A stretch of DNA of 64,000 bases from contig NC_087436.1 of the NCBI RefSeq assembly GCF_036321535.1, positions 19,966,001 to 20,030,000 of the forward strand. The letters run 5' to 3'. Every line of letters begins with the position of its first letter. Position 1 is the stretch's first letter. The notes beneath the pieces are model-generated. The model was not told the DNA's origin. It worked only from the letters and a program-made list of their open reading frames with translations, and searched no databases. This stretch comes from Camelus dromedarius. Taxonomy: Eukaryota. Of the stretch, positions 47,126-55,600 are shown one piece after another. Made by a program: the position numbers and the translations under genes.

Positions 47126-47607
47126 TGAAGAAGACGGACACTAGAGCCTGACCTGCTGAAATCTCTGCTCTGCCACTTCCTAGCCATGTGACCGAGGCCG
47201 AGTTAACCTGACTGCCTCCTTCCCCTCGTCTGCAAGATGGGGGTGACAACAGTCATGCCTCTTTGGGTTTTGGAGAGGATAAAATGAGATAATGCATTTC
47301 AAGCATGACACAGTTCCTCACACTCAGTAACATGTCCATCTTAGCTATTATTGTCATTTTTATTTTAATTATTATAAGATCCCAATAAACACTTGTCAAA
47401 TAAATGAATATCTACTCCTGGCCCGTGAACCACAAGTACCCTCACCACAGGTCCAGCACTGGGACAGCTGGAAACCTCAGCCTGTGCTCCCTGAGTGATG
47501 ATGTGGCCATGAGGCCCCAGCTCCCTGCCCCCATCACTGCTGTTATTCTAGGGTTTTCATCTCCTAAATAACAGACCTGGGGTTTCTTTGTTTGTTTTAA
47601 TTTTCAG

Positions 47608-47799
47608 GGGAAGACAGGAAGACCCCTAGTGAATCAAACAGCCCCTCTTCATCCTCCCTCTCCGCTCTGAGTGATTCAGCCAACAGCAAGGACGATTCCG
47701 ACAGCTCCCAGAAAAACAAGAGCGGAAACAACCTGCTGGTCATCTCGGTCGTGCCCGGGAGCCAGCCCTCACTGAACAGTGAGGAAAAGCCAGAGAAGG
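47608..47799 (+). CDS. ZNF827: ZNF827 coding exon, Ser-rich linker: GEDRKTPSESNSPSSSSLSALSDSANSKDDSDSSQKNKSGNNLLVISVVPGSQPSLNSEEKPEK
   Basis: ttttaattttcag acceptor; G|GTAAGG donor; 192 nt, phase 1-1; open frame. Confidence 0.92.
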
Positions 47800-48156: not shown

Positions 48157-48334
48157 GGTTCGAATGCGTTTTTTGCAACTTTGTCTGCAAGACGAAGAAC
48201 ATGTTTGAGCGCCATCTGCAGATACACCTCATCACCCGGATGTTTGAGTGTGACGTGTGCCACAAGTTCATGAAGACCCCTGAACAGCTGCTGGAGCATA
48301 AGAAATGCCACACTGTCCCCACCGGTGGGCTCAA
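48157..48334 (+). CDS. ZNF827: ZNF827 coding exon: GFECVFCNFVCKTKNMFERHLQIHLITRMFECDVCHKFMKTPEQLLEHKKCHTVPTGGL
   Basis: ggtcctttcag acceptor; AA|GTAAGG donor; 178 nt, phase 1-2; two C2H2 fingers. Confidence 0.94.
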
Positions 48335-49961
48335 GTAAGGAAAGCAAGTACAGAACCTTTTACTGTGTTGTTATTAAACACCCTTTCCCCAGCCCTGCCC
48401 CGTCCCCCACCTGAAGGTTTTGGGGGTCTTGGGGAGGGGGGTTGGCATGGGGGGAGTTAGGCACCTCAGCTGCCTTTAGCTGGAGAGGAATAGACCTGTC
48501 TCCCAGGGGTCAGCAGATGTCAGTAGGAAAGTGCATTCCACAAATATGCCGGGATTCCGGCAAGCAAGACGACTCGTTGAAGCAACTCGGCATGAGCACG
48601 CAAGGGTAGACTCATCCTCCGCTGCTTGAGTTTTGTCCAGACTTGATTTTAAGGGACTTGGGGTTAGGGTCCTCACGTGTAAATTATTATGCTGTCACTG
48701 CACTTCACCATCTCTGTTTTTTCAGATGATTTGCCACAAGTCTTCTAAATAAGCATTACAACTACTCCATCCACACCCACCCACAAATATTGGATCTTTT
48801 GTCAGTTTGAACAGGCAGGAGGCAACTTTTTTTTTTTTATGCAAAGATCATGTGCCTCCTGTCTTCCTGCAAAGATGCTTCATGCCTTCCCAGGAACTGG
48901 AATCGGGATCTCCCTGGTGTAGCCTTCATGAGATCTGACATTTCTGGGCACATGTTAGTCACAGATCCCCAAAGACCTAGACACCAAGCATCATCATTAA
49001 CCAATATTTGCAAGGAGCCCTCTGGTCTGAAGTGAGACCCATCCGTTATTAACGAATGCACTGTGTGTCTGGCTTGATAATAGGTGCTAAAGGGCAAACA
49101 AAGAATAAAACATAATTTCCACTCTTGGGAAACGTTCGTCCGAACGCTACCAGAGTTTAATCCCAGTGCTTCTAAAATCAGAGTCCCAGTTCTCAAGGCG
49201 CTCACGGGCTAGTAAAGAGATAGAAGCATGTGTCACTGGGGACAGAAACACACATCAATTTCCAGGCCTAATTTTTCATGTTTAGCTAAGATGATCATGT
49301 AATTAAAAGAATGAAACATGACGTTTTACTTAAGAAAAAAAAATTATTTTTGAACATTTTTATCTTTGAAACTCACAACTTGCCAGAGAGGTGGCATGAC
49401 TCCTCTGAATGGCCGAGGGGTGGAGAGACCCAGAGGGAGGTTGGGAGTCAAGTGGGGGGTGGGGGGCAAGTCAGGGTGGACTCCCCAGGCTCCTGCCTGG
49501 TCGGGGGGGGGCCTCCTCAAAAACTTGCCCAAGGAGCAGCACCTACTGTTGGATCCCATTTTATTTCACTCTGGGGAGAGGGGCGATTAGGTGGGAGGGG
49601 TGGGGAAGAGAAGAAGAATGGGGGGAGGGGTGGTTAATGCCTAGCAAGAGCTTATTTGGGAATTTGATTTGTTTTGTTCCCACTGTCCCTTTCTAAACAT
49701 TTGTATACTTTTACCCTAAAAAAAAAAAAGAGCCATGTATTTATGTGGTTGGACTAGCACCCATCCCTCTTCCCAGTAGCCCAGTCACACCCATTAATTG
49801 CGGCCCCGGCCAGTTGTGGCTTCGCCAGTTAGGTCCCCTTTCCTTTGGGGACCTCAGGAGTCCGGAGCCTCCGGCCCACTGGGGAGAATGCACAGTGAAC
49901 GCTGATGCTTTTGCGGATACAGACACTTCCCGTGCGGTGCTAATGGTCCCCTATGTAATAG

Positions 49962-50028
49962 TTTATGTTCTAGGATGACCAAGTAGAAGAATACTTTGAA
50001 AAAATTGCTAATGCCTTCTGGCTATACA
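49962..50028 (+). CDS. ZNF827: ZNF827 alternative stop-containing exon (67 nt), encodes (N)LCSRMTK* with TAG at 49984-49986
   Basis: gctaat branch-like motif; taatag acceptor; ACA|GTGAGT donor at 50029; translation matches a ZNF827 isoform C-terminus as I recall it. Confidence 0.75.
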
Positions 50029-50312
50029 GTGAGTCTTTGTTTTGTTTTGTTTTGTTTTTCCCTTTGCCATATCAGAGAATTAATTTGCCTGAGAGAGTGT
50101 CTTTACGATAACTAACGGGAGCACGGAAAAACCCTTAGCACTTTGCCTGAGCCGCGAAAGAAAGATTGAGCCGTGGGTCACAGAAATGTCCTTAAAATGA
50201 AACAGACCGCCGATGTCTAAATTGCTTTTCTGTGATGGAACTGCTTGTACTCTATATCCTGTTCATAATGCAGATCAAATAAGATTATACTATTATTTTT
50301 CTTTTGCCGTAG

Positions 50313-50345
50313 CTCAGGACAGTGGTGAGTTTCAGACTCCTCTAG
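50313..50345 (+). CDS. ZNF827: ZNF827 alternative small exon: 33-nt form encodes (N)SGQW*; 12-nt form (50313-50324) has no stop
   Basis: tttttcttttgccgtag acceptor; two donors, TG|GTGAGT at 50325 and AG|GTAAGG at 50346; NSGQW matches a ZNF827 isoform end as I recall it. Confidence 0.8.
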   Translation, partial: LRTVVSFRLL

Positions 50346-51797
50346 GTAAGGCCCAGCTTGGCGTAGGGGTTGTGTGTGCACCTGACCTGGGAATGGGCTT
50401 TATATTTCTCTCGTGTGCACTCTTCTGTGAGCTGAGGTTCCGAGGCTAACGGCGGGCTTGGCGCTGAGGAGCAGTGCACGGTGCACTTGGTGTGTTGGGC
50501 TCTGCTGGACACCTCTCCAAACCCTCCGAGGACAGTTCACTCGTGGGCCCTGCCCTGCAGGTGCCAAGCGAGAGCCGAGGCCGCCACTTTTGCACTTGCC
50601 TTCTTTTTGTAAAGAGAGCACACACGCCACAGCTATCATATCAGCCACCGACTCGAGCCTGGCAGCTTCTGCGAGCGCAGCTCAGCAGAACTTGCAGAAA
50701 CATGCCCTCCCTGCCTGCCTCGCCCCTTTGGACAGCCAGTGGGGCTTGGGGGTAGCGTAGCCTCACTGCGTAGAATGGAGAGGCCCAGGCTTGGTCCCAG
50801 CGCACAGCTAGCCTAGAGCCCGATAAGGTGACAGAGCCGGGACCAAAATCAGCCCTTATGGAATCTGCCTAAATTACGTGTACAGACCAGTCCCGTAGTG
50901 AATCAGTACCCATCATGTGCTGAGTCCTCTACCGAGCACTGCAGAGAATGCAGAAGAAACGGGAGATACGGTCCTGCCCAATGAGAATTTACGATCCCCT
51001 TGGATTATTATTTCCATGATGTAATAAGGCACTCATAATGTCTTCAAGCTCCAGATAGCAGCTGTCCCCCTTCCTCCTGAGTCCCTCATTCGTAGGTGGG
51101 CTGGTGGGTGGGCCTCCTTCTCCTGAGCCCAGGTCCTGGTCCTCACCTCCCTTCCCTATGGAGACCCAGTGCTGCAGGAGCCAGGTTTGACCAGTACAGA
51201 TCTCTGTGTATACACGCACTCCCACACACAGTGACACACACAGGCCTTCTCATCCTAACCACCCTTTAATAAGCACGACTCTGACCCCTACGACTTTCTG
51301 TTTGCTGGAGGTAGCTCTCCCCACTATAAGCTGTTCTTTAAAACTCTTAGCCTTTCTGCGTGTGCTTGGTGTGGTGCATGAAAAGTCGATTCTTTGTGTT
51401 GCTCCCATCTTGAGGGGAGGTCGTGAGGTTTAGACCTCGGCTGTGTCCAGTGGGGAGCGGGGAGGGCTCCGAGGGGCGGGGTGGGGAGGACGGAGGGGAG
51501 CAACAGCTTATCTGGTCCTGGCACTGTCTCTGCTCCCCTTCCTGAGGGCTGGCGTCCGCTCTTGCAGCCAGGAGACCCCCGAGCAGGCCCGAGGGAAGGC
51601 TCTGTCGGCAACCAGAGCCTAAGAGGGTCTTCTTCATCCCTCCGGAGGCGGCAGGGCTGGGCTGGACAGGGGGCAGGCCAGGCCTCAGGCTGGGGAGGGC
51701 GTCCAGAGGGAAGGCTGGTGAGGAGGGTAGCAACCGGGGGACCGCAGAGCCCGCGCGGCTGACCCTCCCTGTCCTTGCTTGCCCCCTCCCCCGGCAG

Positions 51798-52626
51798 GTG
51801 CCCATTCTGCATTTATTCCACCAACCGCCCCGCCGCCATGGAGTGCCACCTCAAGACCCACTACAAGATGGAGTACAAGTGCCGGATCTGCCAGACGGTG
51901 AAGGCCAACCAGCTGGAGCTGGAGACGCACACCCGCGAGCATCGCCTCGGCAACCACTACAAGTGCGACCAGTGCGGCTACCTGTCCAAGACCGCCAACA
52001 AGCTCATCGAGCACGTGCGCGTGCACACCGGGGAGCGGCCCTTCCACTGTGACCAGTGCAGCTACAGCTGCAAACGCAAGGACAATCTCAACCTGCACAA
52101 GAAGCTGAAGCACGCCCCGCGCCAGACCTTCAGCTGCGAAGAGTGCCTGTTCAAGACCACGCACCCTTTCGTCTTCAGCCGCCACGTCAAGAAGCACCAG
52201 AGCGCGGACTGCCCCGAGGAGGACAAGAAGGGTCCGAGCCCGGCCCCCGCCAAGGACGCCGCCGGCCCTGGGGCCCCGCTCCTCGTCGTCGGGAGCTCCC
52301 GCCACCTCCTGTCTCCCCTGTCGGTCATGTCCGCCTCCCAGGCTCTGCAGACCGTGGCCCTGTCGGCCGTCGGCAGCGGCGGGGGCGGCTCCGAGCCCAG
52401 CCTGGCACTCAAGGCCTTGCCCTTGAACGGCTCCCCTTTGCGCTTCGACAAGTACCGGAACTCGGATTTTGCCCATCTCATTCCCTTGACCATGTTGTAC
52501 CCCAGGAACCAGCTGGATCTCACATTCCACCCTCCCCGACCTCAGACTGCGCCGCCCAGCATCCCCTCCCCGAAACACTCCTTCCTCGCCTATCTCGGAC
52601 TAAGAGAAAGAGCGGAGACTGTCTGA
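51798..52626 (+). CDS. ZNF827: ZNF827 terminal exon coding segment: CPFCIYS...RERAETV*, five C2H2 fingers plus a C-terminal tail (long isoform only)
   Basis: ccccctcccccggcag acceptor; phase 2 joins exon 48334 in frame (AA+G=Lys); 275 sense codons; TGERP linker; strong GC3 bias. Confidence 0.88.
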
Positions 52627-55600
52627 GGGCAGCCAGGCTCTGTACCAAAAACCAAGAGACAGACAAAAACAAACAAAAACAAAACCCACAAAACTTAAAC
52701 ACAACCCCAGCAGGTGTATGTTGCTGCAAAACCTACAGACTCCCATGGGTCTGAACCACGTGTACTGTATATCTTTAGTAAGGAATAGAGAATTGGCTCT
52801 GTGTGTATACCTATTGCATTGACCTGAAAGCTGCTTTATCCAATCTTCAGAGAGGTGACCTACTGCGCCCGTCTACCTTCAGAGGCATGCCTCCCCAGCC
52901 ACCCACTCTCACTCTCAGCCCTCCTCGGTCCTTTTATCTGAAAGGAAATTTGTCTCGTTAAACCCTGAAGGGAGTGTCCTTACTAGCAATCAGCCCTTGT
53001 AAGCTTCTACACCGGTGCATTTTATTTTCCGTTGGGTGAATGTGGTGAGTGGGCGTTTGTGGATTTGGAAAGAGACCTCCATGTGTCCTGTGCCGGGACA
53101 TTTGCACATTCTTTGTACTGGCTTCTTTCACAGCGATGAACATTCTCTCTCCCCCCCCCCACCCCCACCCCCCAGGACTTTCATCCACACCAGTCACTTC
53201 CCTGAGCTCCCTCATTACCTTCCTCTATTTTATGGCTACAGAGTGGTAGGGCCTGGTGCTTAGTCGATGAAGGAACGGTGGACATCCTCAGTGCTGCCTG
53301 AGATTTCCCACAGAGTCCTGGAGACCATGTGCTCCGATCTCTGGTCATGAAGACACTAGCCATCAAGAGCCCTCGTGTGGAAGAAATGTCTCGCAGCACT
53401 GCAGCCCGCACCACAAAACTCCAGTGTGTTTTGTGTGTGTGTCCATACGTATGCAGTGTGTATGCTACACACACACACAGTGCATCATTTTTTAAGGGCA
53501 GATTATATATATATATATGATGTATTAAGTCATGGTTACCATTTGTTTGCAGGAAAAGAAAAATTGTATGAGTGAAAAATTTTATGGTTGATAAATCCAG
53601 CCAAGGAGATTAAAAGGGGTTTGGATAAATTCTGGGTATAAATGCTCAGACTAAAAAAAAAAAGAAAAAAGAAAAAAAAAAAAAGAAACGGCAGTTTTGC
53701 ACAGTGCTTTGGTCTTGCACTAGTTTTTGTTTCTCATCTGCAAAAAAGAAATAAGTAAAATAAAAGGAAGAAAATGTACCTTTTTTATGGAATGAGTAGA
53801 CTGTATGTTTGAAACTTTTGTCACAAACTCTTTGACATATAACGACCCAACAAAAAGGTGCTGTTTAGTCCTACGGTTCAGTTTATACCCCTGAGACGTT
53901 TCCATTGTGTTTGCGGATTGTCTGGCTATGGCGGTATTCTCCATGTTATTAATAATTCTGTATTCCATTTTGTTAACGCCTGGTAGACATAACCTGCTAG
54001 GAGGCTAACTTTATACTTATTTAAAGCTCTTATTTTGTGGTCATTAAAATGGCAACTTATGTGCAGCACTTTATTGCAGCAAGAAGCAGGTGCGGGTGGG
54101 TTGCATAGCCCCTTTGCTGTTCTTAAAAAGCAATGGGTATGTAAGAAGAAGAAAAGGAACAGAACCTTTGGCTAAATATGTTAATGGCTTGTGTTTTTAA
54201 GACAACAGGATTTCCAGGATGAAACAGGCTGAAAGAACAGGAAAAAAAAAATGTGCTTTGTATAACAATGGGAAGTTCGGAATATAAAAGTTTTATCTAT
54301 TATTTATCTATCGAAGAACTGGTGTATGGGAGGAATGCTTTCTTACTGCGTTGCTGGTTTCCATCATGTGTTATCCTAGAGTTGGGATTTTTTTTTCCGT
54401 CTGTTTCACCAGGGGAAAATAAAAGCGTCCCTAATTTTCTTCCTCTAGTCAGTTTGCTTCACTGAAAGCTCCCCCTTGAAACTGGTACCGTTCTACCGGA
54501 AGCCAGAAGTCTGTAACTTCTGTCCACACCATGGTCCTCCCCCGTACCCACCCTTCTTCCCCCAGACTTAGCAGGTGTGCTAACACTTCCCTTGGCCAGT
54601 CATCCAGCCCTGGCAAAGCTGTTTACACTAAGGAGATGTCCCCGGGGGCAGGGAGGCTGAGCCAGCTAGGGCGGGAAGCTCCCGCACCTTTGGTCATCTT
54701 CCAGCAGAGACATTTGTTCTTGGCCACGTTTGACACGTCATTCAACGTTGCCCTCGTGATGTCTCGGTAAAAGACACTATAGACAGTTACAGACAATACA
54801 CTCCAAGAATACTGGGCTTCTGGGTTGGTTGGTTTGTTTTTTTTTTTAAAGGCATGTCTTTATCCCCATTTAATGGAGAATGTGCCACTTGGCTAATCTT
54901 GTGCTTTCAAAATTACAAGTTCAGTGATAACAGGAAAGGAGGCCACAGTGATCCCACAGGGGCTGGCAGAGAGGCGTGAGCACCAGCAGGTTAAAAACCT
55001 GAAGGGTGGCCCTGGCAATTAGGACTGCAGACTTTACAGTGTGCCACTTGTGCAATACAAGGTCCTAGGGTGAAAGCTGCAAGATCAAGAGGGGCGTTGG
55101 AGGGAGACGGTTACCGCTCAGATGCTTGCCACTGAACTTGTATTTGAATGACTTAGTTATGCTTAATGTAATTGGGCAACTTTTTTTAGCACTTTGGAAA
55201 GAGTCATCAGTCTTTCTGGTAAATTATAAAAGTTTTCTGAGTGAGAAAAGGTGTGTTTGGAGTTTGTTTGACTTTTTATATTATTATTGTTATTAATAAA
55301 GAAAAATCTACAGCATTTTTCAGATTCCACCGAGGTAATATGTACCCCTGAATTTGGTTTGCAGTTTGATACTCAGGGAAGGATGTATTCCATAGATATC
55401 CTTTCCGTGTAAAACACTAACATCTTTGAGATATTCACCTGCCAACTAACTTCAATTCTGTTTTCACTATGCATTCTTCAATGAAAGCTAGCTTATTTTT
55501 CCATATAGTAATGCAGTTAGAGTTCTCAGAACTTTCTTCTATCCTTTTTTTTAACTCCTCATATTATGTTCAGATGATCATACTGTCAAGGTTTGTGTAC

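Follow-up and report, generated by a model that had tools for sequence, protein, structure and literature searches.

A known alternative exon of the last ZNF827 intron as a probable small combinatorial splice module

Introduction

How can one short exon decide whether a zinc-finger protein keeps or loses its last five fingers? The question is raised by a stretch of DNA at 50313 in a 64 000-nucleotide window of Camelus dromedarius (the window is the whole stretch analysed; all positions are window positions and all features described are on the + strand). An earlier note had read this stretch as an exon in which a stop codon overlaps the first of two 5' splice sites, so that a single choice of donor would produce either a long or a short C-terminus. 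The gene is ZNF827, whose protein brings NuRD to telomeres and switches on ATR–CHK1 at single-stranded DNA, according to the available portion of Yang et al. 2024 (PMC10933417). The feature is quite probably a known alternative exon of the last ZNF827 intron that works as a small combinatorial module with two acceptors and two donors.

Results and discussion

Gene identity and exon organization

The window corresponds to the 3' half of a ZNF827 orthologue on the + strand, as judged from homology and colinear tblastn matches. The protein encoded by the last exon is 91–94% identical to annotated mammalian ZNF827 over all 275 residues (E = 5.8e-185 to 1e-135) and 69–83% identical (275 residues) to bird, reptile, amphibian and cartilaginous-fish ZNF827. 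Residues 793–1352 of a bat ZNF827 isoform (P0003) give colinear matches to the + strand near 33.8, 37.8, 39.0, 47.6, 48.2 and 51.8 kb, and this exon order places the 3' half of the gene in the window. The ZNF827 relatives start with MPRRKQ at residues 1–6, and the window covers the 3' half only. Pfam assigned only C2H2 families, and a search of solved structures gave only generic C2H2 matches (CTCF and ZNF568), with no ZNF827 entry among the 60 listed of 138.

Two exons flank the feature. The exon at 48157..48334 (+), located by tblastn with P0003, contains two C2H2 fingers (counted with the pattern C-x2-C-x12-H-x3-5-H) and ends with ...HTVPTGGL plus the bases AA, in phase 2; its 3' end at 48334 reads ...ACC GGT GGG CTC AA, translated as ...HKKCHTVPTGGL, and is followed by GTAAGG. 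The coding part of the last exon (51798..52627, +) opens with G at 51798 after cccggcAG, starts as CPFCIYSTNR... and ends with a C-terminal tail, ...LGLRERAETV, and the stop TGA at 52625–52627. The same pattern matches five times in this exon, and the five downstream fingers proposed in the earlier note are thus present.

At the exon near 47.6 kb the acceptor (47600–47612) reads ttttcag/GGGAAGAC, where a phase-1 G from the preceding exon would give HT-G-EDRK. The bat protein P0003 reads HTEDRK at this exon start, which may mean that the acceptor differs by one codon or that the species differ.

Anatomy of the alternative exon

The alternative cassette at 50313 sits in the last intron and has two donors, at 50325 and 50346. 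When the bases were re-read, the exon, GTGAGT at 50325 and GTAAGG at 50346 were found exactly as the earlier note had written them. The outer acceptor, A1 (AG, 50311..50312, +), is preceded by ttatttttcttttgccgt, with tAG at 50310–50312 and a TGC at positions −8 to −6. From A1 to the upstream donor, D1 (GTGAGT, 50325..50330, +), extends a 12-nt frame-preserving microexon, CTCAGGACAGTG (50313..50324, +), which replaces K by NSGQW in the linker ahead of the first finger of the last exon; read across both junctions (marked by slashes), AA/C TCA GGA CAG TG/G gives N S G Q W with the frame kept, whereas the junction AA/G formed when the exon is skipped gives K (GGL-K-CPFC). The stretch TTCAGACTCCTCTAG follows GTGAGT and runs up to 50345. 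The downstream donor, D2 (GTAAGG, 50346..50351, +), is putative, and its use would define a 33-nt exon from A1 (50313..50345, +) in which the codon after NSGQW is TGA at 50326–50328, that is, donor positions +2 to +4 of D1, so that the protein ends ...GGLNSGQW.

A second acceptor, A2 (AG, 50316..50317, +), lies 5 nt inside the exon (CTCAG/G) and sets the exon start at 50318. The frame opened there, AA/G ACA GTG GTG AGT TTC AGA CTC CTC TAG, encodes K-TVVSFRLL and a stop, and its TAG (50343–50345) forms the final three bases ahead of D2. The inner acceptor thus allows the 33 nt to be read in two frames, and both the NSGQW and the TVVSFRLL frames stop if D2 is used or the intron is retained. The acceptors are spaced by 5 nt (50313 and 50318) and the donors by 21 nt (50325 and 50346). 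The donor contexts are GTG/GTGAGT and TAG/GTAAGG, respectively; against the donor consensus GTRAGT, D1 matches fully on the intron side and the D2 context matches from −2 to +5, which makes two donors of consensus quality in one exon. The peptides that would distinguish the products are the short-form C-terminus ...CHTVPTGGLNSGQW and the microexon-spanning NSGQWCPFCIYSTNR.

Annotated products

We classified 410 ZNF827-family proteins by the residues that follow the conserved anchor ...HTVPTGGL. The set combines the hits of three homology searches with cluster members obtained in two look-ups; counts from such hit lists and samples show what is annotated, not how often a site is used. K-CPFC (exon skipped) follows GGL in 232/410, and this junction gives the main full-length protein. 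K and then a stop follow in 62/410, NSGQW or NSGEW and then a stop in 32/410, NSGQW-CPFC (the microexon form) in 9/410, NLCSR[MT]TK and then a stop in 8/410 and other residues in 48/410; the anchor is absent from 19/410.

The short NSGQW form occurs in the human cDNA FLJ31930 (clone NT2RP7006162; P0346), in a 731-residue human/chimpanzee entry (P0180) and an orang-utan entry, and in platypus and echidna (P0334–P0336 and P0338), cetaceans, musk deer, many rodents and bats; in the shrew it ends NSGEW. The UniProt entry G5E9Z1_HUMAN (731 residues) is among the annotated ZNF827 isoforms. Further short NSGQW proteins, of 1074–1084 residues, derive solely from Logan contigs of about 5 kb (P0125, P0200, P0201 and P0211), and a contig of this size that encodes more than 1000 residues must represent spliced RNA. 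A search of sequencing runs listed 20 with half or more of the words, none of which is recorded as RNA. The nine models with GGLNSGQWCPFC fall in three genera (Mus musculus X3, X5 and X8; Mesocricetus auratus X1, X3, X4 and X5; Myotis davidii X2 and M. brandtii X1); each is a prediction by NCBI, and none of the nine has a Logan (assembled-read) source. Six further models (P0224, P0340, P0362, P0364, P0365 and P0366; ...GGLKTVVSFRLL then stop) end in K[TR]VVSFRLL, from Microtus oregoni, Thomomys bottae, Myotis lucifugus, Pipistrellus kuhlii, Erinaceus europaeus and Sorex araneus.

The earlier note is borne out in part by these proteins, in which both the 12-nt in-frame microexon joined to CPFC and a protein ending at NSGQW (as N[SG]G[QE]W) appear as predicted. 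Against its claim that donor choice sets the C-terminus, the exon is no simple two-donor toggle, since the main long form (232/410) skips it altogether. Nor does the exon have just two outcomes, given the third product through the acceptor at 50318, and it is not the sole route to truncation: the forms ending in K or NLCSRMTK also stop right after GGL and arise from the same intron.

In three rat isoforms, X9–X11 (P0183, P0185 and P0189), the C-terminal sequence ...PWSATSRPTTRWSTSAGSARQ comes from the last ZNF827 exon translated out of frame, so that splice combinations which shift the frame have been annotated as well.

Further routes to truncation within the intron

Read-through of the constitutive donor GTAAGG (48335..48340, +) gives AAG TAA, that is, K and then a stop, and an ATTAAA at 48373 lies 38 nt beyond the 48335 donor. 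The GGLK-stop forms (62/410) fit intronic polyadenylation after such read-through. A second alternative exon (49962..50028, +) encodes NLCSRMTK and a stop, TAG at 49984–49986, which lies 42 nt ahead of a putative GTGAGT donor at 50029 taken as the exon end. Bat, hamster, vole and marsupial proteins are annotated with the identical NLCSRMTK tail, and forms of this type make up four of the 14 listed marsupial cluster members. Teleosts have a different terminal tail, KVCEALWGPEQMKGAI followed by a stop. From these annotated tails, a ZNF827 that ends right after the GGL exon seems to be a vertebrate-wide theme.

Two fish models, P0393 (Tetraodon) and P0398 (Poecilia), end GGLKQSDQW and GGLKATNGHW, with W before the stop as in the mammalian NSGQW. 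These tails may derive from a homologous exon or may be a coincidence.

Proposed splice combinations and fate of the transcripts

In the preferred combinatorial reading, each pairing of acceptor and donor would have its own consequence. A1 with D1 would insert the 12 nt and add four residues to the linker that precedes the final five fingers, changing the H-to-C linker from TVPTGGLK to TVPTGGLNSGQW (the nine annotated microexon models). A1 with D2 would truncate the protein at NSGQW, as in the 32 short models, and A2 with D2 at KTVVSFRLL, as in the six; in both cases the route could be D2 or a retained intron. A2 with D1 would leave an exon of 7 nt, after which the last exon would be read out of frame. 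The truncated product would end after the fingers of the exon at 48157 and have neither the last five fingers nor the C-terminal tail.

Neither AATAAA nor ATTAAA occurs between 49303 and 53608, and transcripts bearing the exon must therefore continue into the last exon and up to the normal 3' end. They would either be spliced at 50346 or retain the 1.45-kb intron (50346–51797), with the same proteins either way. If the exon is spliced, TGA 50326–50328 lies 17 nt and TAG 50343–50345 0 nt before the junction at 50345. Under the rule for exon-junction-complex (EJC)-dependent nonsense-mediated decay (NMD), a stop less than about 50–55 nt upstream of the last exon–exon junction escapes, so that the spliced short mRNA should escape with either stop. 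It should be stable and translated, albeit with a long 3' UTR. In line with work on competition among 5' splice sites, we would expect D1 and D2 to compete in earnest, with the downstream donor favoured under double occupancy.

The numbers of annotated models bear on a different reading, in which the exon is a terminator whose truncated ZNF827 is the sole biological product and in which the 12-nt form made through GTGAGT at 50325 is rare splicing noise. It would account for the excess of short over microexon models (32 versus 9 among 410) and for the restriction of the latter to NCBI predictions from Mus, Mesocricetus and Myotis without a Logan source, and the recurrence of truncation after GGL across vertebrates by unrelated routes (K, NLCSRMTK and the fish KVCEALWGPEQMKGAI, each followed by a stop) suggests that the short protein is selected. 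The upstream site speaks otherwise, since GTGAGT is a full consensus match and GTRAGY is forced in two further species (see below), although the stop and the second frame constrain these bases as well. Moreover, a 12-nt exon was called independently in the annotation of three genera, which annotation pipelines seldom do without aligned reads. We regard the terminator reading as possible but rather unlikely.

Stop codons within donors

The overlap of TGA with D1, from which the earlier note derived a switch, is nothing special when set beside the other donors. All three phase-2 donors of the gene in the window carry a stop (37946, AGG TGA; 48335, AAG TAA; 50325, TGG TGA), whereas none of the three phase-1 donors does. 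Where a GTRA donor follows an exon whose last codon has two bases, the donor supplies the G that completes this codon, and TAA or TGA comes next; the overlap of stop and donor is a generic consequence of intron phase and no special device. The turtle models behave alike, P0344 ending ...KYRLM where P0106 splices on to CPFC. As far as the annotated sequences can tell, what is beyond chance is the conservation of NSGQW-stop, together with the second annotated frame in the same 33 nt. For annotation, the exon is a compact example of two things: intron phase can turn read-through of a donor into truncation, and a short exon can serve two reading frames.

Conservation

Conservation was judged from annotated proteins in two frames, which amount to translated genomic DNA whether or not an isoform is real. 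In the annotated models NSGQW-stop is identical from monotremes to primates. The shrew has NSGEW and KRVVSFRLL, and one C-to-G change read in both frames explains both. We enumerated the DNA sequences that are compatible with NSGQW-stop, KTVVSFRLL-stop and the inner AG: there are eight, all of which have GT[AG]AG[CT] at the upstream donor, and the GTGAGT of the window falls within this GTRAGY set. Since both forms are annotated in Pipistrellus kuhlii and Sorex araneus, the species of the sample with both, D1 is kept there at least as GTRAGY. The D1 bases are also held by the stop and the second frame, and on such sequences GTRAGY is no independent proof of selection on the donor. NSGQW was found in none of the 14 listed marsupial and none of the 56 listed sauropsid cluster members. 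Two Pelodiscus (turtle) models, including P0106, carry NGGQWKSFRIAQEKYRLM, an in-frame 51-nt version without a stop.

The identity of NSGQW-stop from monotremes to primates is difficult to reconcile with a non-functional module, that is, an exon-like conserved intronic stretch whose isoforms are by-products of noisy splicing. Spliced transcript contigs and a human cDNA that encode the short form, a good pyrimidine tract at the acceptor and two consensus-grade donors point the same way. This explanation would be in keeping with the module being known in this species from genomic sequence alone, with donor stops that are automatic (3/3 phase-2 donors) and with an unremarkable local RNA fold around the donors (MFE −25.8 kcal/mol, z = 0.39, a fold as good or better in 120 of 200 shuffles); we consider it very improbable.

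Implications for protein function

The available portion of Yang et al. 2024 (PMC10933417) describes two finger clusters in ZNF827, ZnF1–3 and ZnF4–9, and an N-terminal RRK motif that binds NuRD; deletion of ZnF1–3 abolishes binding to single-stranded DNA (ssDNA) and deletion of ZnF4–9 leaves residual ssDNA binding only. The short natural forms keep MPRRKQ and nine of the 14 fingers counted by the pattern. With this N-terminus and fewer fingers, short ZNF827 should still bind NuRD and bind ssDNA less well, and it could be a competitor or a differently targeted form.

A more ambitious version of the combinatorial reading would hold that the 33 nt have been a two-by-two splice module since the mammalian ancestor and titrate a short antagonist or re-targeted ZNF827; we think this unlikely. 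Under it, three of the four combinations may lose the last five fingers (two through an NMD-immune stop and one through a frameshift), and the only combination that restores them may do so with a linker four residues longer. Were it true, short ZNF827 would keep the NuRD-binding N-terminus with weakened binding to ssDNA and telomeres. On this view, the in-frame 51-nt version in the turtle model P0106 would hint that mammals turned an ordinary cassette into a terminator-plus-microexon device. Published work on ZNF827 uses the full-length protein, and the natural short form resembles the ZnF4–9 deletion in the available text of PMC10933417; isoform ratios could matter for telomere recombination and the replication-stress response.

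Comparison with known systems

The ZNF827 splice module is real, conserved and tidy, and public protein databases already contain all of its products, one of them from a human cDNA. The annotated isoforms are the same products (...GGLNSGQW-stop, ...GGLNSGQW-CPFC..., ...GGLKTVVSFRLL-stop, ...GGLK-stop and ...GGLNLCSRMTK-stop), the window holds another mammal's copy and the exon is no new kind of mechanism. A literature search on ZNF827 isoforms, microexons and Zfp827 splicing did not find a description of the exon, which catalogues such as VastDB may list. In their available portions, PMC10933417, PMC8352204 and PMC7657652 do not treat ZNF827 protein isoforms, and PMC12985360 and PMC12594206 name Zfp827 in lists only.

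The microexon shares with the neural microexons regulated by SRRM4 a length of 12 nt (in the class of 3–27 nt), frame preservation and a UGC near the 3' splice site, as the class is described in the accessible part of PMC12871342. One might thus suppose a regulated, probably neural, microexon of the SRRM4 type, with D2 as the default where the factor is absent and the tissue setting the choice between the four-residue and the truncated form. The pyrimidine tract with TGC at −8 to −6 before the acceptor and the human short-form cDNA from a clone named NT2RP would suit this. A lone TGC is often expected by chance, however, and is a weak match to the class; the microexon form is annotated in three genera of the sample, and ZNF827/Zfp827 has no occurrence in the supplement of PMC10250204. 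SRRM4-type regulation is, in our estimate, quite unlikely.

For the combinatorial module that we prefer, a partial parallel is offered by WT1, in which, according to the available part of PMC11807054, an alternative donor (+KTS/−KTS) adds three residues between fingers 3 and 4 and changes the action of the protein. The ZNF827 microexon likewise puts a few residues into a linker between C2H2 fingers. In WT1, however, the two donors belong to a constitutive exon and neither truncates, whereas ZNF827 has a cassette with skipping, four added residues or truncation as its outcomes.

The nearest analogue is the N exon of REST (NRSF; the REST4 form), also a small alternative exon between zinc-finger exons of a chromatin repressor. 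According to the available sections of PMC3390395, the N exon measures 4, 50 or 62 nt depending on which of three alternative 5' splice sites is used, and transcripts that include it encode a truncated protein without the C-terminal fingers. The two differ in that N-exon splicing leads to a truncated protein (as described in those sections), whereas the shortest form of the ZNF827 exon is in frame and keeps all fingers; the likeness is one of mechanism, with no homology beyond C2H2 fingers.

The name of REST also occurs among the collected proteins: P0192, a 259-residue Myotis brandtii entry whose source name is 'RE1-silencing transcription factor A', is the last ZNF827 exon alone, and the name is a misnomer.
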